NCBI GenBank assembly: GCA_964353405.1 | Contig: CAYGWJ010000073.1 | Span: 1 to 53,851, forward strand | DNA: 53,851 nt | DNA from: an uncultured Anaerolineae bacterium | GTDB lineage: Bacteria; Chloroflexota; Anaerolineae; Fen-1058 | Reading direction: 5' to 3' | Shown here: piece after piece, positions 11,388 through 53,493 of the stretch | How positions within the stretch are numbered: position 1 is the stretch's first letter | Layout of the letters: every line of letters starts with the position of its first letter | Notes under the pieces: model-generated | What the model was told of the DNA's origin: nothing | Databases searched by the model: none | Seen by the model: the letters and a program-made list of their open reading frames with translations, nothing else | Position numbers and translations under genes: made by a program

Positions 11388-11572
11388 GAGGCAATCCATC
11401 GTCCCAAGACTGGTACTCGATGGACCCCGTAATCGAGACGCAGCCCCAGGCACCGGGGGTCAGGAGGCTATCGGACAATCTGTCGCCCTGAGTGAAACCT
11501 GCAGGCCCGGCCTGGCCGGGCGCGGCGCGTTGCAGGTGCGCAAAGGACCATCATCACGAAAGGAGTCCCTCC

Positions 11573-27210: not shown

Positions 27211-30200
27211 ATGTTCAAGCGAATTTTCATCCTCACCGGGGTCGTCGTCTTTAGTGCAGTTTTGGTATCGGGCTGGCTGGAACTCTTGTCTGGGGTCACG
27301 CCGGCGGTCCGCGCCAACCCGGCATTCCCGTCGGACTGTGAACCCATTATCTATGACATTTTGACCAACACGACCTGGTCAGGTGAGTGCTATCGCGTGA
27401 TGACCAGCGCCGTCACAGTCCAGTCTGACGCGCTTCTCACCATCGTGCCGACCAGCAGCGCCGGTACGCGAGTCGAGTTCGATCCGAATGCGCGGCTTCA
27501 GGTGTTGGGCGGCCTACGCGCTCTGGGCGACAGGAATCGCCCGATTACTTTCACCCTGGACAATATCACATCAACGCCACCCATGACCTCTTGGGTGGGG
27601 ATCATGCTTGCGCAGAATTCAAGCTTTAGCGACACCCTCCAGTACTCGGTCATTCAATACTCTCGCCAAGGCATCCACATCGACAACGCAAAAGGTATTA
27701 GTATTCTTTCCAATACCTTTCTTTACAACGGCGAAGGCGGCAGCCGCGATGGAGCCATTGGCGGCCTGACAGACTATTCCTTGATTGCAAACAACACCAT
27801 CTACAGCGCCACGAATGGCATTCTGCTGGGCAAGTCTTCTTTCAACGACATCATCAGCAACACAATCTCGAACGTAGATGGTTACGGCGTGGCTTTGTTC
27901 GAGGATCCGCTGCTGCTGGGTGGAAACAACGACGACATCATCAGCAACACGATTTCCGGTTGTGGCCAGGGCGGTGTGTTCGTCAACAACGGCAATGACA
28001 ACATGATGATCGCCAACCAGATTTCCAACTGCGGGCAGGCCGGTTTGCTCATCCGTAATGGCAGCAACAACGCCGTCAAAGGAAACGAGATCGCCCGAAG
28101 CAGCGGCGACGGTTTGCGGCTCGATCTTGGCAGCGGTAATGTCGTTTTCAGCAATTCGATCTATCTCAACGCGGGCGGCGCAATTTCCCTTTCGGTTCAA
28201 GCGGGGACCCGTGTCCAATACAACCACGTCTACAGCAACGGGAGCGGAACTGGCCGCCAAGCATCCATCTACGTCACGGGCACGCCAGACACGTCCATCA
28301 ACAACATCTCTTACAATGTGGTCTATGACAGGCACGAAGATACTATCTGGTATACGGCAAGCAATGGCGATACAGGGTCTCTGATGTGGAACAATGCCCT
28401 GTGTTCAGTTCCACCAGCATACAGACTGCGGAACGATGACAATGTGACCCTTGACGCTCCTTACACTTGGTGGGGCACGAACATACCGACATTGGGCAGA
28501 GAATATACCGGCTCTGTCAACATTACGCCGTGGATCACGCTTTCGCTCATCACCTCAACGGCTACTCTGCCGGCCGATGGAGTTTCAACCAGCAGCATCA
28601 CGATTTCACTTCGAGACACAGCAGGTCACACAGTCCCGCCGGCCTCCACGCGCCAAACGAACCCGCCTGCTCCAAATCCTCGCCAGATAGATCTGACGAC
28701 GACGATGGGCGTCATCAGTCCGAGGTTTGTCTTTGTGGGCGATGATGGCTTTGCTACGGCGACCTTGACCTCGGCTCCGACGACGGGCACAGCCCTCATC
28801 ACGGCGACAGCATTCTGCAATTACCCTGTCTCTATCCCGGTCAGGTTTGCTGCGACGAATCTTGCCATTACCAAGACCGCCATCGTGACCCAGGTCGTCC
28901 CTGGAGACGCGCTTGCTTATCGCATCACCTACAGCAACACGAGCAGCATCACGGCGAGCGATGTCCGCATCACGGACACTTTGCCGGCTGGCGCAACCTG
29001 GCTGAGCGATACGGCTCCGGCGCTGGGCTGGACACGAGTTCAGACCTCGCCTGTTGTGGTGTATACCCGGTCGAATGCGCTGGCGAACACGCGCGAGAGT
29101 TTTACCCTGATGGCGTCCGCGCGTCGCGCAGCCTGCGGCGTGCCTCTGACGAATGTGATCACCCTTAGTACAGCGACCAACGAGACCAATCTAGCCGATA
29201 ATGCTGCTTCGGCGCTGGTGGAGGTCGCTTGCGTGGATTTGTCTATCGCCAAAGTGGCCACACCACCCATCGGCACGCCAGCCGACCCGGTGACGTTTAG
29301 GATTACCTATACCAACAACAGCAATGTCACATTGCCAAGCTTTGTGATTACCGATACTCTGCCCACTGATACCAGCTACGTGAGCGATACCAGCAATCTG
29401 CCGATGACACCGGTGCCGGGCGGCCTAGTGTGGAACGGCAGCAACCTTGCGCTGAACCGGCGGTTCAGCTTTGACTTGCGATTGCGCTATACGGGCGCGA
29501 CGTGCAGCCAGGGCATCACATTGACGAATCGAGTTGACATCGCCTCAACTGCGCCCGAAATGCAGATGGACAACAACACGGTGACAGCGACCTATGCCAT
29601 TCGCGGCGGTATGTGCGCGGATGTGGTGGTGATCAAGAATGACGAGGTCGGGCCTACGACGCCAGCGCCCAATGCGCCTCTCTCGTCCGACAAACGAGAC
29701 GCGCTGGCGCGGCTGCTTGCCCCGCATGGCTTGTCTGCACATCGCGAATTTGTCCGCCCAGGCGACCTGGTCACATACACGATTGCGGTGGTCAATCACG
29801 GCGTCTATACCGCCACTCAGTTTGTCTTGACCGAAACCATGCCGCTGAACTCGGACTATATCGGCTACGACTGGGCGCAGTTGGACACGCGCACATTTAC
29901 CACGAGTGTCGGCACGCTGGCCCCCGGCGCGGGCCGCGTCTATGAATTTGTCGTGCGCGTGTGGCCCGACATCCCGGGCGACACGCGAAATATCACAAAC
30001 ACGATCTGCGGCCAGGGCGCAGAGCTTGACTTGAATCCTGAGGACAACTGTTGGATCGAAGACACGCCTGTGCGCCCGTGGGAGCTGCGCGTGACCAAAT
30101 CTGCGCCGCAGTGCGTCATCCCGGGTCAGGACTTTGAGTATACCATCTGGTACACGAACACAATGACGGGGACAACTTTTACCCATGTGCCGCTCACGGA

Positions 30201-32367
30201 TACACTGTCTCCCTATGTCGCTTACCTGGGTGGCGGGGGCTGGAATTGTCCGTCGCATGTGTGCACTCAGAGTATTCCGACAGTCACGGCGGGCATTCAC
30301 TCAGTGGGCCTGTTAGGCCAATTGGACGCTCACTTCCCCTATACCATCGAACACGGGATCACAAACACGGTTGAAATCACAGGCGGGTATCGCTTTACGC
30401 TGTTCACGCCAGTTTATACGGGCGCGGATCTGGCGGTGGTCAAAAACGACAACGTTGGCCCGCTCCCCTTGGCGCAGCAACGGGCATGGGATCAAGTTCG
30501 CTCTCGGCTCTCGAGCCTGAACCGCGTGAGCCAGATGTCACCCTACCGCGAGTTTGTTCAGCCTGGCGACCGTATCACCTATACCATTTTGTACGTCAAC
30601 AATGGCCTGGAGGGGGCGCGCCATGTCGTCTTGACTGAGACGCTTCCGGTTCAAACACAATACATCGGCGGCGGATGGACGCCTGTTGGCGGTGGCCTAT
30701 ACACAATATCGCTCGGCGATCTGGGGCCGCATGAAGGCGGGGAAGTGCACTTTATCGTCCAGATTGACAATGCATTCTCCTGCCGGGCCAATCCGCTTCG
30801 CAATCGCGTGAGCATCGGCGGCGACAACGCCGAGTGTGACCTGAGCGACAACTGGTCGGTGGATCACACGACGATTAGCAACTGCGTCCCGGTCAACAAC
30901 GTGATCTTTTTCCCCATCGTCCTTAGAGATTATCCGCCGCCGCTTCCGAATGTCCTGTTCAGCAGCGGCCACTATAGTGTAGACGAAAAAGTGGGCGCGG
31001 CAGAGATCACGGTGGTGCTGGATCGCTCGTGGTCTCAGACGGTGACGGTGGACTATTACACCCAAGATGGGACGGCGCGTGCGGGCAACGATTACACGGC
31101 GACCAGCGGCGCGCTGGTGTTCGCGCCAGGCACGCCGAGCAAAACCTTTGCCGTGCCTGTCGTGGATGATGGAGTTTACGAAGGGCCAGAAACCGTCTAT
31201 CTGTGGCTGACCCATGCGCGCAATGCTAACATCGTTCCACCCAATCCCGCCACGTTGACGATTGAGGACAACCCGGGGGTAACCTGTTCACCTATGCCGC
31301 CGAGTTGCGCCCCGGCGGTCTGGTGTACGTTACCTTCCGCTCCCAGTCCGACGGGCATGGCTTACGAGACCAGCACTGAGCGTTTGTACATTGCCAACGA
31401 GGGCAGCGGGGGCGATGGCAATCTACGGCGCAGTACCTCGCTGGGGATGCCCGTTGCGGTAAACGATGATCTGCCCGGCGCGCGCGGCGTGGCGCTCGAT
31501 AGAGGCCGCAATCGACTCTACGTGGCGGGTGGCGACTCGCTCTATGTCCTGGAGGGCGCAACGTACGCCCGCGTGCGGACGATTCGCGTGGGCGCTGGCG
31601 CGCGCGGCGTGGCCTACAATCCCAATACCGATCTGATCTATGTCACTGCGTATGAGGACAATTCAGTTTGGGTGATCAATGCGGAGACGTGGAACGCGGT
31701 CAGGTTGCACAATTTCCACGAGCCGGCGTACGTGGCAGTCAATACCGTTACCAACAAGGTGTACGTCAGCAATCACACGGGCGGCAATCCATGGGGGTAT
31801 GTGACGGTGATCAGCGGCACCAGCGAGATCACCCGCGTCTATTTGAGCGCCGATCTGTATGGGTTGGCAGTGGACGAGGTTCATAACCGCATCTATGTTG
31901 CTTCGATCAGCGTGTCGCGTTTGTTTGTCATTGACGGCGTGACGGACACCAAACATCCAATTGACATTCTAATCATGCGCTCCGGCGGAAACCAGGTGCC
32001 GCTACGCATGGTAGCGGTCAATCCTAGCGTAGGAGGGGCAGACACACATGTCTGGCTCACCAGCAGTTCCAACGATTATTTGGGTCTGGACAAGTTGTTC
32101 CTGCTTCACTTGCCGGGAAGCAATTGGCCACCTTCAAGCCCAATGACCTTGCGCGCTGTGAGCGTCGATCCGTCACCGGAAGGCGGGCTGGTGTTCGACC
32201 CGGCTTCGTGGCGTGTATTTGCCAGCAGTGCTAATTCAAACCTGGTGACGGTCTCCCAGGATAATGCTACACTTTGCCGAGCGCCACTCGCCACGAGTGC
32301 GGCCGCTGGCAATGATGACTATTATGTCGTCGTGCTTGACAATACCAATCACAAGCCCGGGCGATAG
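27211..32367 (+). CDS. Giant secreted protein (1,718 aa): parallel beta-helix, Ig-like, multiple DUF11 repeats, Calx-beta, YVTN beta-propeller
   Basis: Signal anchor MFKRIFILTGVVVFSAVLV. Beta-helix repeats (NNTIYSATNGILLGKSSFNDIISNTISNVDGYGV...). DUF11 units (LAITKTA...PGDALAYRITYSNTS...DVRITDTLPAGATW). Calx-beta (TVTVDYYTQDGTARAGNDYTATSGALVFAPG...VVDDGVYEGPE). YVTN repeats (YNPNTDLIYVTAYEDNSVWVI, NTVTNKVYVSNH). RBS GGGGAGG. Confidence 0.9.
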   Translation: MFKRIFILTGVVVFSAVLVSGWLELLSGVTPAVRANPAFPSDCEPIIYDILTNTTWSGECYRVMTSAVTVQSDALLTIVPTSSAGTRVEFDPNARLQVLGGLRALGDRNRPITFTLDNITSTPPMTSWVGIMLAQNSSFSDTLQYSVIQYSRQGIHIDNAKGISILSNTFLYNGEGGSRDGAIGGLTDYSLIANNTIYSATNGILLGKSSFNDIISNTISNVDGYGVALFEDPLLLGGNNDDIISNTISGCGQGGVFVNNGNDNMMIANQISNCGQAGLLIRNGSNNAVKGNEIARSSGDGLRLDLGSGNVVFSNSIYLNAGGAISLSVQAGTRVQYNHVYSNGSGTGRQASIYVTGTPDTSINNISYNVVYDRHEDTIWYTASNGDTGSLMWNNALCSVPPAYRLRNDDNVTLDAPYTWWGTNIPTLGREYTGSVNITPWITLSLITSTATLPADGVSTSSITISLRDTAGHTVPPASTRQTNPPAPNPRQIDLTTTMGVISPRFVFVGDDGFATATLTSAPTTGTALITATAFCNYPVSIPVRFAATNLAITKTAIVTQVVPGDALAYRITYSNTSSITASDVRITDTLPAGATWLSDTAPALGWTRVQTSPVVVYTRSNALANTRESFTLMASARRAACGVPLTNVITLSTATNETNLADNAASALVEVACVDLSIAKVATPPIGTPADPVTFRITYTNNSNVTLPSFVITDTLPTDTSYVSDTSNLPMTPVPGGLVWNGSNLALNRRFSFDLRLRYTGATCSQGITLTNRVDIASTAPEMQMDNNTVTATYAIRGGMCADVVVIKNDEVGPTTPAPNAPLSSDKRDALARLLAPHGLSAHREFVRPGDLVTYTIAVVNHGVYTATQFVLTETMPLNSDYIGYDWAQLDTRTFTTSVGTLAPGAGRVYEFVVRVWPDIPGDTRNITNTICGQGAELDLNPEDNCWIEDTPVRPWELRVTKSAPQCVIPGQDFEYTIWYTNTMTGTTFTHVPLTDTLSPYVAYLGGGGWNCPSHVCTQSIPTVTAGIHSVGLLGQLDAHFPYTIEHGITNTVEITGGYRFTLFTPVYTGADLAVVKNDNVGPLPLAQQRAWDQVRSRLSSLNRVSQMSPYREFVQPGDRITYTILYVNNGLEGARHVVLTETLPVQTQYIGGGWTPVGGGLYTISLGDLGPHEGGEVHFIVQIDNAFSCRANPLRNRVSIGGDNAECDLSDNWSVDHTTISNCVPVNNVIFFPIVLRDYPPPLPNVLFSSGHYSVDEKVGAAEITVVLDRSWSQTVTVDYYTQDGTARAGNDYTATSGALVFAPGTPSKTFAVPVVDDGVYEGPETVYLWLTHARNANIVPPNPATLTIEDNPGVTCSPMPPSCAPAVWCTLPSAPSPTGMAYETSTERLYIANEGSGGDGNLRRSTSLGMPVAVNDDLPGARGVALDRGRNRLYVAGGDSLYVLEGATYARVRTIRVGAGARGVAYNPNTDLIYVTAYEDNSVWVINAETWNAVRLHNFHEPAYVAVNTVTNKVYVSNHTGGNPWGYVTVISGTSEITRVYLSADLYGLAVDEVHNRIYVASISVSRLFVIDGVTDTKHPIDILIMRSGGNQVPLRMVAVNPSVGGADTHVWLTSSSNDYLGLDKLFLLHLPGSNWPPSSPMTLRAVSVDPSPEGGLVFDPASWRVFASSANSNLVTVSQDNATLCRAPLATSAAAGNDDYYVVVLDNTNHKPGR

Positions 32368-44367: not shown

Positions 44368-44634
44368 TCAGGCGTAGGCCGGTTCTGCTGGCCTCTCTTC
44401 CGGTTCCATCTGGAACAGGAAATCCGGGGCCAGGTCGGCGCCGTTCGGCCAGGTTACAGTGCGCGAGTCTGGATCGAGATAGGCCTGGGCAAAATAGGCC
44501 GGATCGCGTAACGGCTGAAAGACTTCGCCATACAGCTCATGCCGAAGATTGACGCGCTTGCGGATGCCATTATCAAAGGTCAGGTCAAGCGAATATGGCC
44601 CTACAACCTCGACTTTTCTCACATGGATAATCAT
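44368..44634 (-). CDS. DUF2442 domain protein
   Basis: MIIHVRKVEVVGPYSLDLTFDNGIRKRVNLRHELYGEVFQPLRDPAYFAQAYLDPDSRTVTWPNGADLAPDFL is the typical DUF2442 text. Confidence 0.8.
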   Translation of the reverse strand: MIIHVRKVEVVGPYSLDLTFDNGIRKRVNLRHELYGEVFQPLRDPAYFAQAYLDPDSRTVTWPNGADLAPDFLFQMEPEERPAEPAYA

Positions 44635-44648
44635 CAGAACGATTCCTT

Positions 44649-44909
44649 CTAGTCCAGCGGCGCGATGGAGCGCAGCGGCAGTCCGGCGCGAGCAAGTTCC
44701 CAGTTTGCGCGCAGTTCGGCCTGATGGATGGCAGCCCACTCAAATACTTGAGAGCGCGTCTTTCTGGACAGGCCACCCTCCAGGATCATGATCGGGTCAA
44801 TGCCCACCTCGGCGGCCTCTTCGCCAAGCTCAGCATGAAAGTGCGGCGGATAGTGTTCGCGGTAATACATCAGAATCTTGATGCCGTTGAAGATGGAGAT
44901 GGTTGGCAT
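44649..44909 (-). CDS. DUF4160 domain protein
   Basis: MPTISIFNGIKILMYYREHYPPHFHAELGEEAAEV... carries the canonical DUF4160 signature (I.MY..EH.PPHFHA). It is paired with DUF2442, as is common. Confidence 0.8.
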   Translation of the reverse strand: MPTISIFNGIKILMYYREHYPPHFHAELGEEAAEVGIDPIMILEGGLSRKTRSQVFEWAAIHQAELRANWELARAGLPLRSIAPLD

Positions 44910-44982
44910 ATTCACATTATAGCACGCCTTCAGAGCAGGAACAAGATTTTGCTGTTTCTGGTTGAGCGCGCAAGTCTTTCGC

Positions 44983-45024
44983 GAGATGGCGACGTTCGGG
45001 GAGGCGGGCGTGGCGACAAAGGAC
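44983..45024 (+). repeat. Direct repeat copy 2 (orphaned former cobT 3' end)
   Basis: GAGATGGCGACGTTCGGGGAGGCGGGCGTGGCGACAAAGGAC. In frame it continues ...EYRSRLK* with TGA at 45046-45048 inside the following hairpin. Confidence 0.9.
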
Positions 45025-45030
45025 GAATAT

Positions 45031-45051
45031 AGGTCACGCTTGAAGTGACCT
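45031..45051 (+). terminator. Hairpin plus T-rich tail, likely the original cobT terminator
   Basis: AGGTCAC-gcttgaa-GTGACCT followed by GCGCTCTTTACTTTTCG. Confidence 0.5.
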
Positions 45052-45394
45052 GCGCTCTTTACTTTTCGCGTTTGCAACCCTGTGTGCTGCCTGCACGCCC
45101 ATGCCCCTGCCCGACCCCGACTTGCTCCCTCCCGTTCCTGCCCAGACGCCCGAGCCGGCCGACGCTTTTGACTTTCCGCTTTCTCCCGAAAATCCGGCCC
45201 CTTTCTGCATTACGTCGGCGGGCCGCTGCCGGTGGACACGCGCTACGCCGCGCAAAACCCCGGCGTGGGCTATACGTGGGATGATAATCCAACGCGCGCC
45301 CGGCCCGACTATTGAGGCTATCGCGAGCCGACGGCGTTTGTCGAAGCGAGAAGATGAGCTGCGGGGTAATGGGATTCTCGCAGAATTGAGAACA

Positions 45395-45421: not shown

Positions 45422-45582
45422 GCGTTTCGCGGCAGCGGGCGGCGTTAGGGTGCGTTTCAGTTTTTAGGGCCACCGGTACTGGCGCAGTGCTCCGACGACC
45501 CTGGACACCGGTTTTGCGATGTCTGCGTCTAACTGGTCACAAGTCGCCCAATAATTGAAACGCACCCAGTCAAAACGTTCGT

Positions 45583-45610
45583 TTGACATCATTTCAGAGA
45601 CAAGTATACT
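45583..45610 (+). promoter_or_regulatory. Near-consensus promoter of the three-gene island operon
   Basis: TTGACA (45583-45588), 16 nt, TATACT (45605-45610). About 130 nt upstream of ATG 45741. Confidence 0.45.
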
Positions 45611-45740
45611 ATGGATACAGTTCTTGTAGAGAGCTGACCTCGTAGATTCAGAAAGAACTTTGCAATGATGCAGTTTTTTCTCCAAACCCAGTTTCCTCTT
45701 GGAGCACCAGGTGGAAGCCCCTGCTTTCAAGGAATGCATA

Positions 45741-46898
45741 ATGGGCAAATCCTCAACTGAACCACAGAAATTGCCGATTGACTTTCTTGTCGTTACGCCG
45801 CTTGAGGAAGAGCGGGACGCCTTGCTTGACAAGCTGCCAGGATGGCAAAAAATAGCTCCATCTGAGCAGGATGTTCAAGTCTATTTCCAGTCGGCTCTAT
45901 TGACCACTTTTCCAAATGGCTCTACCAGCGTTTATCAAATTGTCGTGATGCCGCTTGTGGGAATGGGCCGAGTGCAAGCCGCAATGGCAACCAAAGATGC
46001 TATCCGGCAGTGGCACCCTCGCCATGTAATCTTGGTGGGTATTGCGGGTGGGGTGGCCGCCAAGGGTGTGGAACTGGGCGATGTTCTTGTGGCAGACAAA
46101 ATCGTAGATTACGAATTGCAGAAGCAGACCGCCCAGGGTTTGGATATACGGTGGGAAGTCTACAATGCAAGCCCAAGACTGCTCGGGGCAGCCAGAAATT
46201 TGATCGGTGAAAGTTGGTCAGATCTGAGCCGAGTCAAGCGCCCGCAGCGCGGCCAGCCCAAGCGCCATATTGGCCCAATTGCCTCAGGAGACAAAGTCGT
46301 TGACTTCGCCGAGGCCCTGAATATATACCGCGAGACTTGGTCCAAGCTTATTGGGACAGAAATGGAAGCGGGCGGCGTGGCGGCATCAGCATTTCAGTCG
46401 GTTGAGCATGCAGAGTTCTTTATGATTCGGGGTGTTTCGGACCTAGCGGATGGAGACAAGAACAATCCTCAGACTGAAAAGTGGCGCCCTTATGCCTGTG
46501 ATATCGCGGCGGCGTACACCGTCGCACTACTCAAAAGTGGACCGGTTCCGCCAATCAGTGAAGACGTATCTGTCGCTGCGCCTCGACAAGAGACTGTCCA
46601 CTCGGATATTGAAGAATCCTTCAGCAAGCCAAGCCTTGACACACAGGTATTACGAACTCTCTATGCCTATTATCAGATGCATAAAGGGGAACGGCGAATG
46701 AATCTCAATGAATTGGTCACGGCTTGCAGAGCTGATCGGCAAGATATACTACAGTGTCTTTTGGGACTAGAAGAGAAAAGGTGGCTAGAGTATGATGTGA
46801 CAGTTGCGGCAGAAGCCGGGGTGGTGTGGCTTACCGCACTTGGAATCAAAGTTGCTAAGGATATCTATGGAAACAAGCCTGGAAAGCAAAATTCTTGA
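45741..46898 (+). CDS. PNP_UDP_1 (MTA/SAH-nucleosidase-fold) domain protein with C-terminal winged-helix domain
   Basis: Start MGKSSTEPQKLPIDFLVV (AAGGAA upstream). Fold motifs: VVTPLEEERDAL, HVILVGIAGGVAAKGVELGDVLVADKIVDYE, IGPIASGDKVV, GTEMEAGGVAASA, FFMIRGVSDLADGD. The C-terminal ~85 aa are wHTH-like (LRTLYAYYQ...MNLNELVTAC...LLGLEEKRWLEYD...VWLTALGIKVAKD). Confidence 0.85.
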   Translation: MGKSSTEPQKLPIDFLVVTPLEEERDALLDKLPGWQKIAPSEQDVQVYFQSALLTTFPNGSTSVYQIVVMPLVGMGRVQAAMATKDAIRQWHPRHVILVGIAGGVAAKGVELGDVLVADKIVDYELQKQTAQGLDIRWEVYNASPRLLGAARNLIGESWSDLSRVKRPQRGQPKRHIGPIASGDKVVDFAEALNIYRETWSKLIGTEMEAGGVAASAFQSVEHAEFFMIRGVSDLADGDKNNPQTEKWRPYACDIAAAYTVALLKSGPVPPISEDVSVAAPRQETVHSDIEESFSKPSLDTQVLRTLYAYYQMHKGERRMNLNELVTACRADRQDILQCLLGLEEKRWLEYDVTVAAEAGVVWLTALGIKVAKDIYGNKPGKQNS

Positions 46899-48333
46899 CG
46901 AACTTTACACTTGCTTCAATCGCCAGCCCGGTCACCCAGTTACCTTGAGTGAATTGATCGAGGCGATTGGCACGAGTGACATAGGAAAAGTTTGGCAGGA
47001 ACTCAAACGCTTGCAAGAGAAGGGGTGGGTCAAATATCAAATCCTGGAAGACGGAACAGCCGGTACATTTGAAGTGACGTCAGATGGTTGCACAATTGCT
47101 CGAGATAGGCAAAAAACAGTTGCCTATCCTCAGCGTGATAGAGTAAACACTGCTTGCTCCTGCCCAACGACCATAGGCGATCTAATTCAGAAAAAACCAG
47201 ATTGCGCCTCCCTCATTCAGCGCGACGATATTGTGCACGAGATTCAGAAGTACTTTACTCAGAGACCTCCGCCTAAACTGAATTACGTTGTTTTGTATGG
47301 TCAGCCAATGGTAGGAAAGACCTTAATCCTTCGTCGTCTGTGCGAAGTTTTGGGTGGCGAATATGTTACGCTCATGGTGACTGGACAGGGCATCAGTGCA
47401 AGCAATCAGGATGACTATCTGTTCGATCTTGCGTTTCAATTGAAGATCCAGTTCGATCAATGGACTAAACGTCGCGGGTTGTCTCTCAGCCTGGACGCCC
47501 CTGAGCGGGAAGATTTTAGAAAAGGAAGGGGGAGAAATGCGTTTTTTGTGTACTGGAATAATCTTCGACACACGGCTGACAATATACAGCCTGTGGTCAT
47601 GTTCGATGAAATCGAGCACCTATTAGATGATCCACGCCACTTGGATGAGCAGATAATTGCTTTCCTGGACACTTTTGTGAGCGACCCTGATAATGGATAT
47701 TTTGTTTTGGCCGGGTCTGAACGCATATCTCATTCAAGTAATAAGCGGTTTAGCGATTTAATCGGCGATGGATATTCTGTCCGTGTTCCATATTTTGACA
47801 AAGAAGATGTTGAGTCATTCTTTACGGCGCTCCAAGATTACTTTGTCTTGGAAGATGATGCTTTAAAGTGTGTTGTAGCTCTCTGCGATGGGCAGCCTCG
47901 AGTGCTGCAGAACATGTTCGAAGTGATTGCGTCTCTTGCATCTAAATTGCCAGGCAAACGGGAGGTCGGGAACAGCGACGTCAAACTTATCGAGAAAGGC
48001 ATCCTTGAGCGAACCGACAACTTTATATGGGCGCTCGTCCAGCGATTACATCGCGAAGAAAGAGGAGTAGTAACACTGTTCAGTCAAAAGCCATGTGATT
48101 TGAACGACTTGGGGTGCCGCTTAAGACAACTGTTTGAACAGGCAGATCAGCATTTGCAGTCAAAGTTGAACTACAAGAGCCTGGAGGACGGAACTGATTA
48201 TTTGAAAACACGGGAATGGATTGACTGGATAAACCGAGATGAGCGGTTTTTCAATTTCAGGTTAGGGATTGTGCGCTTGTGGCTTAGCCACAATATTCTC
48301 AGTAGTGAGTGGATTGAGGAAACAAGCCAATGA
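46867..48333 (+). CDS. wHTH + P-loop NTPase (AAA/STAND-like ATPase)
   Basis: Start METSLESKILDELY (AAGGA upstream), 32 nt inside the upstream gene. N-terminal wHTH (VTLSELIEAIG...LKRLQEKGWVKYQ...FEVTSDGCTIARD). Walker A YGQPMVGKT, Walker B PVVMFDEIEHLLD. Helical C-terminal half. Confidence 0.85.
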   Translation: METSLESKILDELYTCFNRQPGHPVTLSELIEAIGTSDIGKVWQELKRLQEKGWVKYQILEDGTAGTFEVTSDGCTIARDRQKTVAYPQRDRVNTACSCPTTIGDLIQKKPDCASLIQRDDIVHEIQKYFTQRPPPKLNYVVLYGQPMVGKTLILRRLCEVLGGEYVTLMVTGQGISASNQDDYLFDLAFQLKIQFDQWTKRRGLSLSLDAPEREDFRKGRGRNAFFVYWNNLRHTADNIQPVVMFDEIEHLLDDPRHLDEQIIAFLDTFVSDPDNGYFVLAGSERISHSSNKRFSDLIGDGYSVRVPYFDKEDVESFFTALQDYFVLEDDALKCVVALCDGQPRVLQNMFEVIASLASKLPGKREVGNSDVKLIEKGILERTDNFIWALVQRLHREERGVVTLFSQKPCDLNDLGCRLRQLFEQADQHLQSKLNYKSLEDGTDYLKTREWIDWINRDERFFNFRLGIVRLWLSHNILSSEWIEETSQ

Positions 48334-51239
48334 GCACGCAACCACATGTCAACCCTTTCCGGGTGGGGACAGAAATTCGGGATCCAGCAGATTTTGTCGG
48401 ACGCACCGAAATCCTGCAAGCTATCTCTGCTGCGATGCGAAATCTCCAAAATGTATCTTTGCATGGTGAGCGACGAACTGGAAAAACGTCATTGCTGCTT
48501 TATCTGGCCCATCCTGCTTCTGCTTCGGTAATCGGACTGCCCTCAACTCATATCCCCGTGTATTTCAACTTTCAAGGCTTGGCCGCCAAAGCCAGCGCGG
48601 CTAGTATCTGGCAGGCTATTGCAGATGCCATTTCGATCCAGATCAAGCAGAGACACCCTGATGGGCAGGCTGAAGCAGAACGATTCCTGGCTACCATAGC
48701 CGCAGAGACCTCTGCCATGCCCGCAACTAGTTTTGGGCGAGCTCTTGCGCACCTAGGTAGCTCTGATCACAAGATTCACCTTCTGTTTGATGAATTTGAG
48801 CAAACAGCAGAAAACCCCGACCTGAGAGATATCTTTTACGACGAGCTTCGCAGCTTGCCCCAACGGGCAGGAAATACCTCCTATGTTATCGCCACCCGCA
48901 CAGGGCTGGCAACGCTTCAGCCAAAGTATAACAAGGTCAGTTCCCCCTTCTTCAATATTTTCACCACTATGATCCTGCATCCTTTCGAAGAAGATCAAGT
49001 TTACCACCTAATTTTTAAGTATCTTAATCGTTCAGGTCTTGGTTTTGTCGCAGAAAGACTGTGTACTCAGTCTCATTTCTTACATGAAGTGACAGGATAC
49101 CACCCCTTCTTTCTGCAGACTTTGTGTTACCACCTCTGTGAAAGGATAGATGAACCTGGCTGGCCATTGGGCAAGCCCCAACAGGAAGCACTGGCGGCTT
49201 TCGAAAACGACGCGGACCCTCATTTTAGGTATTATTGGGAACAATCATCTCCAGCAGAACGAGAGCTACTGGCAAAACTTGCTACTGGGCAGTCTGTTGA
49301 TTGGCATGAGACAAATGCAGAGCCTGTGCGCAAGGAACTGGAAGCGCGTTGCCTAGTTGTGCAGACTAATGAGCTTGAACCTGGATGGAGGTTGTTTTCT
49401 TCTGTTTTTGGCAGGTGGGTCGGGGCTCAGTTATTAAATGAAGCCAAGAAACAACAGCAGTTGGAAGAATGGTACAGGCAGGGCATTGCACATCTGGAGC
49501 GAGAACAGTGGTCTGAAGCTATTCAGTGCTTCGAGCACATTGTGAATGAAAATCCCGCTTATCACGACGCTGTCGAACGACTGGAGTATGCACGGCCACA
49601 GAAAGAGTTAGAGATCCTGTACACCCAAGGCCTCAGCTATATTCAACGAAGCAATTGGCAACAAGCAATCACCAAACTTGAGGCTGTGGTTCAACGGGAT
49701 AGCGGCTTTAAGGACGTAGCCGCCTGCTTGCAAGTGGCGCAGAGGCAGCAAGAAGCAGAGATTCTCTACAAACAAGGCAAAGATCGGTTTAATCGTGGTG
49801 AATGGTCCCAGGCGATTGAGCAACTTGAGCGTGTCCTGATACTGGTCCCGGGTTACAGAGACGTGGATGCGATGCTGACCCAAGCACGCCAGCAAGAAAG
49901 ATTACAGCAATTGTACCGCCAGGGTGAGGAGTATCTTAAAAAAGAGGAATGGCAGCAAGCCATTGACGCTTTTGATCAAGTTGTTGCCCTTGACAAAGAC
50001 TATATGGACACCCTGGCGAAACTGGATGAAGCGCACCGGCAGGCAGAATTGTTCGATCTCTATGACAGGGCTCAGTATTATGAGGAGAAGAAAAGATGGG
50101 CCGAAGCCGGAGACCTATACATCCAAATCTTGGCAAAGGACCGAGATTACCGAGATGTTGCCCGCCGACTGGCTGAGGTGCAACTCCAGAAGGAACTTGC
50201 AGCTCTCTACCTACAGGCAGAAGATGACTTGGCGCGAGGCGAATGGAACAAAGCAGCGGGAAAGTTTTATCAAGTCCTTAAGTTGAGTCCAGGGTACCGA
50301 GACGCTCAAGCCAAGCTGGTAGAAGCAGAGAAGAAGGCACGACTTCAGACCATTTACGATATGGCAATGCAGGATGCGAAACGGGAGAACTGGAAAGCTG
50401 CGGCCAGGAAGTTGAAAAGCATTCTGAGAGAAGAGCCGGCTTTTCCGGACGTCGAAGCAAAGCTGGAGTGGGTTGAACGGAATGAGAGACTGGCGGAGCG
50501 CTATCTACTGGCGATTAAGCGTTTGAAGACAAAGCAGTGGCAAGCGGCTATAGCGTTGTTAGAGCAGGTCCTGGCAGAAGATCCTAGTTACAAGGACGCA
50601 AGCGAGCAACTGGATGAGGCAAAGAGACATGCAAGCCGGGTGGAGCAGCCGGAGCCAAAATCTGAAAGTCAGGTTGGTCAAGTGCTTGGTCTTATCCTGG
50701 GGTTTATTGCAGTGGCCCTTACAATGTTTGCGGTTTGGAAGATCAATCCTGGACAACTGGTCCTGGTGATTGTTGGCGCTGGGGTGTCTATAATCGGTAT
50801 CCTCTTGACTTTTCTGTCTTCCAAGAAATTCGGCAAGGTGCCTGGATCGGTGGTATTCGTATTAGGCTTGGCGATATCTCTAATCGGTATGATACCAATC
50901 CCATCTTCCTCTAAGCTCGAAATCACCAGCGTCAATCTAGTTGAAGGAAAAGTGACTGGTAGAATGCTTGTCAATGAGCAACTACCCCAAGATGTAGCCG
51001 TTGAAGTTTACATGCGAACGGGAGGTGACAGAGGCTGGCTCTTGATCAACCCGAATCCTGGCTCTCACGATATACACCTGGACGATACTTGGACTTGGAC
51101 TGTTTATTTTGGTCAGGAGGTACATTTGGAGCCGGGGGAAAACTTGTCCTTTGCTGCACTTGTGCCGGTTGGGAAGATAAGTGAGCTTCCCGGGTCCCTA
51201 GCAGCTTGTCGGAGAGGCGTTTCGGAGTCTAGGCTTTAG
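48330..51239 (+). CDS. STAND-like P-loop NTPase + 8 TPR-like repeats + 3 TM helices + extracytoplasmic beta-rich tail
   Basis: ATGA overlap with the upstream gene. NPFRVGTEIRDPADFVGRTEIL...LHGERRTGKTSLLLYL (Walker A), KIHLLFDEFEQ (Walker B). Eight ~46-aa repeats (L..LY.QG......W..AI..LE.VL...P.Y.D....L..A). TM helices VLGLILGFIAVALTMFAVW, LVLVIVGAGVSIIGILLTFL, VVFVLGLAISLIGMIPI. Confidence 0.85.
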   Translation: MSTQPHVNPFRVGTEIRDPADFVGRTEILQAISAAMRNLQNVSLHGERRTGKTSLLLYLAHPASASVIGLPSTHIPVYFNFQGLAAKASAASIWQAIADAISIQIKQRHPDGQAEAERFLATIAAETSAMPATSFGRALAHLGSSDHKIHLLFDEFEQTAENPDLRDIFYDELRSLPQRAGNTSYVIATRTGLATLQPKYNKVSSPFFNIFTTMILHPFEEDQVYHLIFKYLNRSGLGFVAERLCTQSHFLHEVTGYHPFFLQTLCYHLCERIDEPGWPLGKPQQEALAAFENDADPHFRYYWEQSSPAERELLAKLATGQSVDWHETNAEPVRKELEARCLVVQTNELEPGWRLFSSVFGRWVGAQLLNEAKKQQQLEEWYRQGIAHLEREQWSEAIQCFEHIVNENPAYHDAVERLEYARPQKELEILYTQGLSYIQRSNWQQAITKLEAVVQRDSGFKDVAACLQVAQRQQEAEILYKQGKDRFNRGEWSQAIEQLERVLILVPGYRDVDAMLTQARQQERLQQLYRQGEEYLKKEEWQQAIDAFDQVVALDKDYMDTLAKLDEAHRQAELFDLYDRAQYYEEKKRWAEAGDLYIQILAKDRDYRDVARRLAEVQLQKELAALYLQAEDDLARGEWNKAAGKFYQVLKLSPGYRDAQAKLVEAEKKARLQTIYDMAMQDAKRENWKAAARKLKSILREEPAFPDVEAKLEWVERNERLAERYLLAIKRLKTKQWQAAIALLEQVLAEDPSYKDASEQLDEAKRHASRVEQPEPKSESQVGQVLGLILGFIAVALTMFAVWKINPGQLVLVIVGAGVSIIGILLTFLSSKKFGKVPGSVVFVLGLAISLIGMIPIPSSSKLEITSVNLVEGKVTGRMLVNEQLPQDVAVEVYMRTGGDRGWLLINPNPGSHDIHLDDTWTWTVYFGQEVHLEPGENLSFAALVPVGKISELPGSLAACRRGVSESRL

Positions 51240-51327
51240 CCGGTTTTGGCCGAAAATCGCCGCGTGCTCACCGGCTGAAGCCTCGATTCCGGCCCGTCAG
51301 GGTTCTCTCCGACAAGCTCCTAGGGGA
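51195..51327. repeat. ~133-bp nested inverted-repeat element spanning the stop of the STAND gene
   Basis: Outer arms 51195-51216 TCCCTAGCAGCTTGTCGGAGAG and 51305-51327 CTCTCCGACAAGCTCCTAGGGGA (one mismatch, one extra G). Inner arms 51231-51243 AGGCTTTAGCCGG and 51271-51283 CCGGCTGAAGCCT (12/13 plus a G-U pair). Confidence 0.85.
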
Positions 51328-51349: not shown

Positions 51350-52018
51350 GTGCTCAAAAAGGACCTGAAACCCCTGGTGTTCAAGGAGGATGTTGGTTGG
51401 ATATCCGGGGTGTATCGTGAACCGGCAAATACACCAACACCCACCCATACATCAACGGCCAGATCTACACAAACTATTGCACCCACGCCATCACCGACTA
51501 GTACACCAGCGCCATCCAGCTCACCAACATCTTCGCCAATACCGACACATTATCCTTCTCCGTCAGTTAGTCCCACACGCACGCCAACACCTATCGCTGT
51601 CCCGACACTAGCCTTATTGCCGGCTCCCAAGTTGATCAAGCCGGGGAATGATAGTGGCTGGACAATGGGGTTTGTCCAATTTGAGTGGACGTGGGATGGC
51701 AATCTCTCGAATGACAAATGGTATCTGATCCGTGTTGGCCCTGATCCGAATCTGGAGATGAACACAGCAACCGCAAAAACCTGGGAATCTGGTACCTCAT
51801 GGCAGACGAATGATGTAGGCGCACGTGCAGGTTGGTATTACGCTTACGTGGTCGTTATAGGCACTTGGCCCGGCAGTGCAGAAAGCTGCAAGCCTTACAT
51901 CTATGAAGCAGGCAAGAATGTCTGTTTCCGAGAAATAAGCGCAAGAAGTGAGAAACAGGAATTTTACTTTGTACCACCTGGTTCGGGTGCTCCTTCATGC
52001 CCGCCCGGTCATTGTTGA
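51350..52018 (+). CDS. Pro/Thr/Ser-linker protein with Cys-containing C-terminal domain; possibly the detached C-terminus of the upstream gene
   Basis: The GTG start has no convincing RBS and no signal peptide, yet the sequence looks extracytoplasmic (a long PTPTHTSTA...PSPTSTPAPSSSPTSSP linker, then WTMGFVQFEWTWDG...CKPYIYEAGKNVC...CPPGHC). The frame is open upstream to 51233. Confidence 0.55.
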   Translation: MLKKDLKPLVFKEDVGWISGVYREPANTPTPTHTSTARSTQTIAPTPSPTSTPAPSSSPTSSPIPTHYPSPSVSPTRTPTPIAVPTLALLPAPKLIKPGNDSGWTMGFVQFEWTWDGNLSNDKWYLIRVGPDPNLEMNTATAKTWESGTSWQTNDVGARAGWYYAYVVVIGTWPGSAESCKPYIYEAGKNVCFREISARSEKQEFYFVPPGSGAPSCPPGHC

Positions 52019-52089: not shown

Positions 52090-53493
52090 TTGAGATTGAA
52101 GATAGGAAAATGGTTGCCTAACATCTTGGAACCGATTGTAGCCCGTAAATGGCTACTCGTTTCAATATTTCTCGGCATCCTTCTCTTTGTCTCTGTTTAT
52201 GCTGTACTAGTATCGGAGAGAAGGCCCATTTTACATCTGGCCCAAAGTGACGCGCCTGATCCTGTTGAAGTTGGCAAAACGTTGGTATACCATATCACCT
52301 ATAGCAACACAGGGCAAGCTGCGGCGCATGGAGTGTTTATCACCGACACTTTCGATATGAACGTTACTCCCATAGCATTCTCGCAGCCTCCTCACACTAT
52401 AGATAGTCGCCAGGGGTCATGGAACATTGGTCAGGTGAAAGCAAACAGCAGTGGCGATGTTGTCATTACCGTAACGGTGAATAGCTCTCTTACAACTAGC
52501 CTCAAGTTGTCTAATCAGGTCAAGATAAGCAGTGATGAACTTCAGGCCATTGAGGACAGAGAACTCACACGAGTTATTGGAGTTCCGGTATTGAGCATAA
52601 GCCAAGTTGACCCGCCCGATCGAGTAGGACCAGGCGGAATACTGATCTACAGACTCACCTATAGCAATACTGGAACCGCCGCAGCTACGCAAGCGAGTGT
52701 CTATGACGAGTTTGATCCCAACGTCATGTTTGACGCAGGCAATTGTGCGCCTGTTCCAAGTATGTTAGGTCCGCGCTTGGCTCTTTGGAATATTGGGAAG
52801 CTGGAAGTGGGAGAGCAGGGAATGATCGAGTGTTCAGTTCAAGTAACAGACACGGTGTTGGGCTTCGCCGTGCTAAACAATGCCGCTTGGATTCAGAGCC
52901 ATGAAACGGATAAAGTAGAGGCACATACCAAGACCGTATTGAATAGCCCCGGAGTGCTCTGTAACGGCGACTTTGAAATGGGTGACTTGAGTTGTTGGAT
53001 CAAAATTGCCGCGCCCAACTTTCCTGTAGATGTCGTGAGACCCCTTACTGATCCAAATTATAACTGCTTTGATACCTATGCTGTGCGTATTGGAAATTCT
53101 GGATGGGTGCCCAATGGAAAGTTGGCAACGGGGCGCTATGGCATTGCACAGACTGTCCAGGTATCTGATATACCTTATCCAAAGCTGGAATTTGACTATT
53201 GCATGTATTCCTACGACGTAATGGAAGGTCCCTTTTCTCGCGACATTTACGATATTTTCGCAATTGCTGTAAACGACCTCTACACTTATACTTGGCGTAC
53301 TGGGAACCCTGGTCCGAATTTGGGCAATCCTTGGATGTCAGAACCTTCCCGAAAAGCTATTCGTCAATCCATCGATCTCTCAGACTACCGAGGAAAGACT
53401 GTAACCCTTTTCTTCCTAGTCTGGAACCAGATCTATCCTGAATTGAACACCTGGGTATATATAGACAATATTGACGGCGACTTTGCGCGTTGA
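52090..53493 (+). CDS. Membrane-anchored surface protein: two DUF11-like repeats + C-terminal jelly-roll/CBM-like domain
   Basis: TM anchor WLLVSIFLGILLFVSVYAVLV. DUF11-type units (DPVEVGKTLVYHITYSNTGQAAAHGVFITDTF..., DRVGPGGILIYRLTYSNTGTAAATQASVYDEF...). C-terminal CNGDFEMGDLSCW...VYIDNI. TTG start (52090 or 52096) after GGGAGAGAGGA. Confidence 0.75.
   Translation: MRLKIGKWLPNILEPIVARKWLLVSIFLGILLFVSVYAVLVSERRPILHLAQSDAPDPVEVGKTLVYHITYSNTGQAAAHGVFITDTFDMNVTPIAFSQPPHTIDSRQGSWNIGQVKANSSGDVVITVTVNSSLTTSLKLSNQVKISSDELQAIEDRELTRVIGVPVLSISQVDPPDRVGPGGILIYRLTYSNTGTAAATQASVYDEFDPNVMFDAGNCAPVPSMLGPRLALWNIGKLEVGEQGMIECSVQVTDTVLGFAVLNNAAWIQSHETDKVEAHTKTVLNSPGVLCNGDFEMGDLSCWIKIAAPNFPVDVVRPLTDPNYNCFDTYAVRIGNSGWVPNGKLATGRYGIAQTVQVSDIPYPKLEFDYCMYSYDVMEGPFSRDIYDIFAIAVNDLYTYTWRTGNPGPNLGNPWMSEPSRKAIRQSIDLSDYRGKTVTLFFLVWNQIYPELNTWVYIDNIDGDFAR

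Follow-up and report, generated by a model that had tools for sequence, protein, structure and literature searches.

A three-gene operon of an Anaerolineae bacterium as a probable paired-STAND conflict system with a PNP-fold nucleosidase

Two arrangements known from computational work come closest to the locus reported here, an operon of three genes (g1, g2 and g3) on contig CAYGWJ010000073.1 of an uncultured Anaerolineae bacterium (GCA_964353405.1). The whole stretch analysed, 53,851 nucleotides, is called the window below. One arrangement is a mobile two-gene operon in which both proteins carry STAND modules; nSTAND2 was defined on it and a hetero-multimeric ring was predicted (Kaur et al. 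2021, eLife 10:e70394, Fig. 6C and source data). In that proteobacterial set, nSTAND2 has eroded NTP-binding motifs and bears HEPN or GT4 at its C-terminus, and what lies at the N-terminus of the first protein is given as unknown ('??') (eLife 10:e70394). The other is the EAD coupling principle, where a small non-catalytic domain of a core component recurs on an effector that has its own gene in the same operon (Kaur et al. 2020, eLife 9:e52696). Among effectors, PNP domains of the Cap17 clade are ATP/dATP nucleosidases, also found on Avs proteins and in pAgo systems, CBASS and Detocs, the latter consisting of a kinase (DtcA), DtcB, and a receiver domain fused to PNP (DtcC) (Rousset et al. 2023).

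In the window, g1 encodes a nucleosidase with a PNP fold, and g2 and g3 encode two different NTPases, the second one with predicted transmembrane (TM) helices (Table 1). The genes are on the same strand and coupled, g2 starting 32 nt inside g1 and the g2/g3 junction being an ATGA overlap, and all motifs quoted in a first-pass annotation, made from the letters alone, were found in the three translations. We suggest, with a probability of roughly 0.65, that the locus is an NTPase-gated conflict system, most likely anti-phage and of the suicide type, with two paralogous STAND NTPases at its core. Among conflict systems, it would best be classed as a rare variant of the paired-STAND, adaptor-coupled kind, and its effector is probably an immune-type PNP nucleosidase. 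The first-pass annotation had recognised no named system in this layout, and none was found to match, but the paired nSTAND2 operon and the EAD principle had already been described computationally (Kaur et al. 2020, 2021).

The NTPase pair and its exchangeable ends

For g2, only sub-threshold matches to AAA_22, ATPase_2 and AAA_16 were obtained in Pfam. In its AlphaFold2 model, made with a family alignment (mean pLDDT of 85), a winged helix at residues 5-84 precedes the P-loop domain, and a helical domain and a second winged helix, at the C-terminus, complete the chain. The structural neighbours of this model found by Foldseek are Cdc6/Orc1, archaeal ATPases of PF01637, plant NLR resistosomes and Avs3, and the prediction thus characterises g2 as a STAND/Cdc6-like NTPase. 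In g3, the Pfam model nSTAND2 (PF20702) is matched with 36.4 bits (cut-off of 24) and E 4.6e-9, together with several TPR families, and the partners in related loci match PF20702 as well. The repeats behind this module have a period of 49 residues, longer than the canonical 34 of TPRs, in exactly eight copies, and no tandem repeat was found for them at the DNA level. The order of parts proposed at first for g3, i.e. a second NTPase, eight TPR-like repeats, three TM helices and an outside tail, agrees with the PF20702 match, the repeat period and the hydrophobicity. We place the tail outside because the loop between the second and third TM helices is rich in lysine; no Pfam or BLAST match was found for the tail itself.

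The two NTPase families are related to each other. In an hhalign comparison, 320 columns could be aligned, beginning at the pre-Walker motif and extending to the C-terminal winged helix (probability of 88%, E 3e-6), which makes g2 and g3 paralogous families along their entire NTPase module. Neither family varies at the Gly-Lys of Walker A or at the first Asp of Walker B, these residues being G150/K151 and D247 in g2 and G51/K52 and D154 in g3, where T53 is also invariant; the second acidic residue (E248) is invariant in the g2 family.

In 12 of 12 independent loci (L001, L003, L004, L006, L008, L012, L013, L014, L016, L017, L018 and the window), a g2-type ATPase is encoded directly 5' of an nSTAND2-type protein; the two genes are co-oriented and in most cases overlap or are separated by just a few bases. 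The context of these loci was taken from exact-protein look-ups, since pattern scans had yielded few of them. The three genes also occur together elsewhere, with complete triads of PNP-winged helix, winged helix-ATPase and nSTAND2 in L008 and L016.

What changes from locus to locus are the outer ends of the pair. The N-terminus of g2-type proteins bears TIR, trypsin, caspase, CHAT, a calcineurin-like phosphoesterase or PNP (P0283 and P0312 are direct PNP-ATPase fusions), and the adaptors EAD1, EAD7 and EAD8 are found at the same position. This fits the role of adaptor or effector carrier suggested for g2 in the first-pass annotation, and the architectures indicate that the g2-type N-terminus is a port for effectors. 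At the other end, the C-terminus of the nSTAND2 partner can be TPR, FGS, HEAT, REC, protein kinase, NUDIX, SIR2-TIR or CHAT-TIR, a variation that fits a g3-type protein acting as a variable sensor subunit, as had also been supposed. A swappable g2 N-terminus combined with a variable nSTAND2 C-terminus is the signature of conflict systems as defined by Kaur et al.

The family is sparsely represented. We found 23 relatives of g2 by word-indexed search and, by an exhaustive search with a hidden Markov model (HMM) of 1.84 billion cluster representatives, 91 at E <=1e-30 and 1,272 at E <=1e-10. The NTPase module of g3 has ~22 close relatives, followed by a large score gap to generic nSTAND2 proteins, and g1 and g3 are singletons at 90% identity. 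A pattern scan of GTDB (185,579 species genomes, the window's own genome not being among them) gave one g2 relative, and a metagenome pattern scan gave two loci, one of them already known. We were not able to find relatives of g2 or of the NTPase module of g3 in 72,556 plasmids by tblastn, nor any in scans of viral contigs, and there is no sign of a plasmid- or phage-borne system. Toxin-antitoxin genes or an integrase adjoin the relatives in L008 and L012, which, like the low-GC surroundings of the operon in the window, speaks for a conflict system. Desulfonema limicola and a Magnetomoraceae metagenome-assembled genome (MAG) are among the hosts named for related loci.

Some of these loci deserve a description of their own. 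The sole relative from GTDB (L009, CAYZOW010000109.1) lies on a contig of 1,915 bp binned as an uncultured Nitrosopumilaceae archaeon, an assignment that may be a binning error because the contig is tiny. L015 (1-3144, JGI 3300057013) is a minimal two-gene variant, PNP-winged helix and then nSTAND2-winged helix, with no g2-type ATPase. At a contig end, P0148 has the look of an nSTAND2 protein that continues directly into a PNP domain ('VDFVIVTALEEERD'). L008 (10589-13567) is the closest full triad, its partner being an nSTAND2-TPR protein that ends in a NUDIX domain, not in TM helices, and the system would thereby possess two modules for processing nucleotides. Immediately 5' of this triad are toxin-antitoxin genes of the HepT-like, Phd/YefM and PIN types. 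In L017 (644-9601, Candidatus Magnetomoraceae MAG), two paralogous vWA proteins precede a TIR-ATPase and nSTAND2 pair, and a WD40 protein and a Mg-chelatase/MoxR-like AAA+ gene are found 3' of the pair, which hints at a link to vWA-MoxR type systems.

The nucleosidase and the winged helix shared with its neighbour

The AlphaFold2 model of g1, obtained with the family alignment (mean pLDDT of 86), shows a PNP/MTAN fold at residues 15-265 and a winged helix at 299-377, with a linker between them that is disordered at 275-293. Together with the PNP_UDP_1 match in Pfam (E 1e-18), it bears out the PNP_UDP_1/MTA-nucleosidase fold and the C-terminal winged helix assigned earlier from motifs. Foldseek aligned the catalytic domain with MTA/SAH nucleosidases (TM-score of ~0.8 normalised to target length, ~20% identity). 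Residues E24, E207-M208-E209 and D234 are invariant across the alignment of the PNP clade and kept in g1. They align with the catalytic residues of MTAN, Glu12, Met173-Glu174 and Asp197 in MTAN numbering.

This protein does not seem to be a housekeeping Pfs/MqnB, an orthology that the first-pass annotation had named as the one to be checked. All NCBIfam equivalog cut-offs were missed by far, with 80.6 bits for PRK05584 (cut-off of 169), 61 for TIGR03664 (124.7) and 44.6 for TIGR01704 (73.8), and on these scores we reject a housekeeping nucleosidase. In BLASTP, g1 scores 152 bits with a CBASS PNP-SAVED effector from Nostoc (36% identity), 77 bits with a Detocs-like REC-PNP from Klebsiella (26%) and 40 bits with MtnN from E. 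coli (25%). The Nostoc and Klebsiella proteins had come up as its best matches on plasmids, the former encoded beside a CBASS cyclase and the REC-PNPs of the latter in a Detocs-like three-gene layout. In PADLOC, g1 matched PDC-M60C (5e-27, over the PNP domain only) and the CBASS PN-superfamily effector (1.5e-17). The PNP domain is 50-70% identical to those of the 120 closest homologues, where the fused domains include EAD1, EAD7, EAD9, bDLD1, TIR, FHA, FGS, SLOG, AAA_35 and AbiTii; the nearest named relatives come from Anaerolineae MAGs. By these comparisons, the g1 PNP domain appears nearer to the immune PNPs of CBASS and Detocs-like systems than to housekeeping MTAN. Given its relatedness to the Cap17-clade PNPs, the proteins for which cleavage of ATP/dATP was shown, g1 would most likely convert these substrates into adenine and (deoxy)ribose-5'-triphosphate.

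The C-terminal winged helix of g1 and the N-terminal one of g2 are 29-31% identical (31% over 78 aa, pairwise E 1e-9), and both were modelled as H-strand-H-H-hairpin-H, so the homology claimed for them at first holds, as does the P-loop ATPase that follows in g2. An HMM built from eight copies of this domain matched the N-terminus of most g2 family members. It also matched the C-terminus of PNP effectors (window, L008, L015, L016 and P0002-P0006), of a CHAT effector (L004), of an Mrr-type endonuclease (L018) and of the nSTAND2 protein of L015, and a second, C-terminal copy in the g2 relative P0132. The copies have a net charge of -8 to 0, being acidic to neutral, unlike DNA-binding winged helices.

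The domain is repeatedly shared within a locus. PNP-winged helix is found with winged helix-ATPase in the window and L016 and with nSTAND2-winged helix in L015, CHAT-winged helix with winged helix-ATPase in L004, and Mrr-winged helix with winged helix-ATPase in L018. The two winged helices of L008 were identified with the HMM and from their likeness to the copies of the window; their similarity to each other is only weak. The same distribution is followed by EADs where these replace the winged helix on the g2-type ATPase, the EAD being matched by the same one on the effector encoded upstream: EAD1-trypsin with EAD1-ATPase in L006, and TIR-EAD8 with EAD8-ATPase in L014. Neither g1 nor g2 matched a Pfam EAD or bDLD model at E <=0.1, and these models have no difficulty in finding EAD1, EAD7, EAD9 and bDLD1 in relatives. 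The sharing suggests that the winged helix would be a docking adaptor between effector and NTPase.

Proposed working of the system and competing explanations

We propose the following sequence of events. The g3 protein would be a membrane-anchored variable sensor subunit with a small outside domain, and g2, encoded directly 5' of its nSTAND2 partner and tightly coupled to it, would be the effector-bearing subunit. The effector would be g1, a separate nucleosidase of the Cap17/DtcC-like type, recruited through docking of its C-terminal winged helix to the homologous N-terminal winged helix of g2. Upon sensing of a trigger, g2 and g3 would co-oligomerise in a nucleotide-dependent manner and cluster the winged helices; the PNP domains would be brought together and the nucleosidase switched on, and the cleavage of ATP/dATP would stop the metabolism of the affected cell. 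We infer hetero-oligomerisation, winged-helix docking, proximity activation and ATP depletion, and with them the immune role, from the architecture and from characterised relatives of the parts.

Several points weigh against this proposal. The g1 winged helix is closer to effector copies in other loci (42-57% identity) than to the neighbouring copy in g2 (29%), and the copies form two subtypes, NTPase copies being 20-30% identical to that of g1. Since neighbouring copies are not closest relatives, the recent co-duplication that is a published hallmark of EADs is not seen, and docking would have to be heterotypic, between two winged-helix subtypes; a closest-to-neighbour pattern is present only in L015, with 69% identity between its two winged helices. 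The placement of the PNP clade comes from pairwise scores and architectures. No credible PADLOC model was obtained for g2 or g3, the matches to PDC-S27 (E 0.0015) and LeoBC (E 9e-4) being taken as noise. Elsewhere, the contig consists of ordinary chromosome (with cobalamin genes, cytochrome bd, TatC, kinases, DUF11/FG-GAP surface proteins) and shows no recognisable defence island. Finally, a sensor that is anchored in the membrane and has a domain outside would suit signalling just as well as defence against phages.

The membrane-spanning partner is the least expected feature, together with its matched exported proteins. TM segments are found in the nSTAND2 partners of five loci (window, L001, L006, L013 and L016). 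In all five, the next co-oriented gene encodes a protein with an N-terminal signal or anchor, against none of the five evaluable loci without a TM partner (one-sided Fisher p ~0.004, small sample); in the window, the gene counted is d2, two genes downstream of g3. Both d1 and d2 lie in the same low-GC island as the operon and are for this reason candidate fourth and fifth components. The C-terminal domain of d2 is homologous to the extracytoplasmic tail of the nSTAND2-TPR-TM protein of L006 (E 4e-14). The ~100-aa domain of d1 recurs in the protein encoded downstream in L006 and, by way of the latter, in that of L001. The Pro/Thr-rich linker of d1 is typical of exported proteins; we found no signal peptide in any frame and no hidden frameshift upstream. 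L001 and L016 have different effectors, trypsin and PNP, yet their tails are homologous, as are their downstream proteins (39% and 43% identity). It could be that some family members, including that of the window, are membrane-spanning NLR-like receptors for outside-in signalling, a tentative idea to which we assign a low probability. An extracytoplasmic domain of the STAND sensor and exported proteins of the d1/d2 type would then detect a surface event such as phage adsorption, envelope attack or kin contact; the signal would pass through the membrane to a STAND pair in the cytoplasm, and this pair would recruit the ATP-destroying nucleosidase via the winged helix.

The same parts would have a different biology if g3 and the exported partners read a cue at the cell surface, for instance contact with kin, damage to the envelope or, in a filamentous organism, a signal of development, and g2 and g1 carried out regulated cell death or a metabolic switch. 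This explanation draws on the association of TM partners with signal- or anchor-bearing neighbours and on the homology of tails and downstream proteins across loci with different effectors (L001/L016; the L006 tail and d2), and the named hosts mentioned above include filamentous or multicellular bacteria. We consider it unlikely, given that most family members have no TM segments and carry intracellular modules (FGS, HEAT, REC and SIR2-TIR), that the effector repertoire is of the anti-invader type, and that d1 of the window has no signal peptide, in a sample that is small.

Two other explanations concern the winged helix. It could be a sensor of a ligand, e.g. a nucleic acid or nucleotide, present on effector and NTPase independently, with both responding to or gathering on the same ligand. 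Nucleic-acid binding is common among winged helices, and the existence of an effector-type and an NTPase-type group of copies would be understandable in such a case. The profile of the domain found only winged-helix matches among PDB sequences, including Z-alpha domains, none of them significant (E 0.04-0.6), and the fold assignment is based on the AlphaFold2 topology. The putative recognition helix and wing are not basic, in line with the net charge, and the domain sits exactly where relatives have EAD1, EAD7, EAD8 or fused effectors, so that a ligand sensor seems improbable to us. The second explanation takes g2 and g3 for transcription regulators of the STAND class (MalT/AfsR-like), the winged helices binding DNA and g1 being a controlled metabolic nucleosidase. 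STAND, TPR and HTH do form a known regulator architecture, and weak Pfam matches to HTH_27, PadR and LexA were found on the g2 N-terminus (E 0.04-0.08). Against this, g1 falls short of the housekeeping equivalogs and belongs to a clade fused to TIR, EAD and Death-like domains, and g2 relatives bear proteases, TIR or phosphoesterases instead of or beside the winged helix. Because the winged helices are acidic and the same domain is found on enzymes (PNP, CHAT and Mrr), we reject a role as DNA-binding regulators, and the explanation as a whole is very improbable.

If the conflict-system reading of the operon is true, it has consequences for several groups of proteins. Most of the NLR-like (STAND) proteins of bacterial defence that have been studied are soluble and consist of one chain. 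The operon would be a rare modular version with two NTPases, one of the paralogous subunits doing the sensing and the other carrying the effector, both of them seemingly catalytically competent. A winged-helix docking module in the role of Death-fold or EAD domains would widen the adaptor principle linking bacterial and animal cell-death machinery, and the subset with a membrane-spanning sensor and exported partners would mean that bacterial NLR-like machines may read the cell surface. The ATP-nucleosidase effector, controlled through cyclic-nucleotide sensing in CBASS and through phosphotransfer in Detocs, would also gain a third kind of upstream control. With its 5.5 kb, the system is compact, and what is predicted for it can be tested directly.

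Borders of the operon and relation to known systems

The operon has three genes, possibly five if d1 and d2 are included. It is bracketed by two palindromes that are dissimilar to each other and repeated nowhere else in the window. The left one folds as RNA with -57.9 kcal/mol (z -4.5), and whether it is part of the system is uncertain. The right one, with -86.1 kcal/mol (z -7.8), is a candidate terminator or RNA-stability element. Neither palindrome was matched in Rfam. Of the promoter described in the first-pass annotation, the sequence is present as given and matches the sigma-70 consensus at 11 of 12 positions, but the promoter-like sites in the region number 10, no more than in shuffles (8.6 +/- 3.2); for this reason we treat it as a lead and not as functional evidence. 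The island of lower GC is borne out: its GC content, between ~46 kb and the end of the window, is 0.46-0.52, and that of the sequence before it 0.55-0.66. Neither a tRNA nor direct repeats were found at its edges.

Table 1. Positions in the window of the operon genes, their domains and the flanking elements
Feature	Position	Strand	Description
Left imperfect palindrome	45448-45567	.	21-nt arms, ~78 nt apart; just 5' of the promoter-like site
Sigma-70-like promoter match	45583-45610	+	TTGACA-16-TATACT
g1	45741-46898	+	385 aa; ATG at 45741, open reading frame opens upstream at TTG 45699
g1, PNP/MTAN-fold catalytic domain	45777-46550	+	aa 13-270; AlphaFold2 pLDDT >90 over most
g1, C-terminal winged helix, putative adaptor	46626-46874	+	aa 296-378; effector subtype
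g2	46867-48333	+	488 aa
g2, N-terminal winged helix, putative adaptor	46867-47118	+	aa 1-84
g2, predicted STAND/Cdc6-like P-loop NTPase, helical domain and C-terminal winged helix	47173-48321	+	aa ~103-485
g3	48330-51239	+	969 aa
g3, nSTAND2-type NTPase module	48330-49439	+	aa 1-370; intact Walker A GERRTGKTS and Walker B LLFDEFE
g3, eight TPR-like repeats	49443-50618	+	aa ~372-763; 49-residue period
g3, three TM helices	50682-50900	+	aa 785-803, 810-828, 839-857
g3, predicted extracytoplasmic tail and stop codon	50901-51239	+	aa 858-969, 112 aa; no database match
Right long imperfect palindrome	51195-51327	.	spans the g3 stop codon; 21-nt arms, 95% complementary
d1, candidate accessory gene	51350-52018	+	Pro/Thr-rich linker and ~100-aa domain
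d2, candidate accessory gene	52090-53493	+	N-terminal TM anchor, two DUF11 repeats, C-terminal domain

Other features of the window lie beside or away from the operon. An open reading frame on the minus strand (45464-45832, 122 aa) overlaps the promoter-like site and the g1 start; it has no Pfam match and is probably no gene. A DUF2442/DUF4160 pair of small genes, 44368-44739 (-) and 44649-45077 (-), is located between the cobalamin genes (CobU and CobT) and the low-GC island. Two giant surface proteins are predicted at 11492-17962 (+), with 2,156 aa, and at 27211-32367 (+), with 1,718 aa. Their domains are FG-GAP, DUF11, beta-helix and Calx-beta, DUF11 repeats being present in d2 too.

Among named systems, the locus resembles Avs/AVAST in combining a STAND NTPase, a C-terminal sensor of the TPR type and a death effector; Avs3 is a structural neighbour of g2, and PNP domains are found at the N-terminus of some Avs proteins. 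Membership was rejected, as the tasks are distributed among three proteins, two of them different NTPases, and no Avs model of PADLOC was matched at E <=0.1; Avs proteins are soluble, whereas g3 is predicted to span the membrane. With Cap17 of CBASS and DtcC of Detocs it appears to share the type of PNP-fold effector, with the catalytic Asp and Glu kept, but the activating module would be a winged-helix adaptor to a STAND pair and not a SAVED or TPALS/SLOG sensor nor a receiver domain. No cyclase, SAVED or SLOG domain was found in g1-g3, d1 or d2, which excludes CBASS, and Detocs was rejected since g1 has no receiver domain and the operon no histidine kinase. The PADLOC candidate PDC-M60 was also discarded, as only PDC-M60C matches, on the g1 PNP, and g2 and g3 match no PDC-M60 model. 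In the literature, we found no paper describing this g2-g3 family, the search for PDC-M60 giving a survey paper only, and a STAND survey preprint of 2026 has no mention of PNP effectors or two-gene STAND systems.

The nSTAND2 operon of Kaur et al. (2021) is closer. In both, adjacent co-directional genes encode STAND modules that each end in a winged helix, the second gene being nSTAND2 (PF20702), and TPRs following nSTAND2 and variable effectors attached are also common to both. They differ in that both NTPases keep Walker A and B here, and the effector is fused or recruited to the N-terminus of the first NTPase, g1 being separate. The nSTAND2 C-terminus is sensor-like here and can cross the membrane, with no HEPN or GT4 on g3.

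With regard to the EAD principle of Kaur et al. (2020), the adaptor here is a winged helix outside the Pfam EAD/bDLD models, while most published EADs are all-alpha; neighbouring copies are not mutual closest relatives; and a STAND pair takes the place of MoxR-vWA, a GTPase or EACC1 as the core. The likeness lies in the small terminal domain found both on the core NTPase (g2 residues 1-84) and on the effector of the operon (g1 residues 296-378), and in the direct fusion of the same effector types (PNP, CHAT, caspase, trypsin and TIR) to the core elsewhere. In addition, members of the same g2-g3 family use bona fide EAD1, EAD7 and EAD8.

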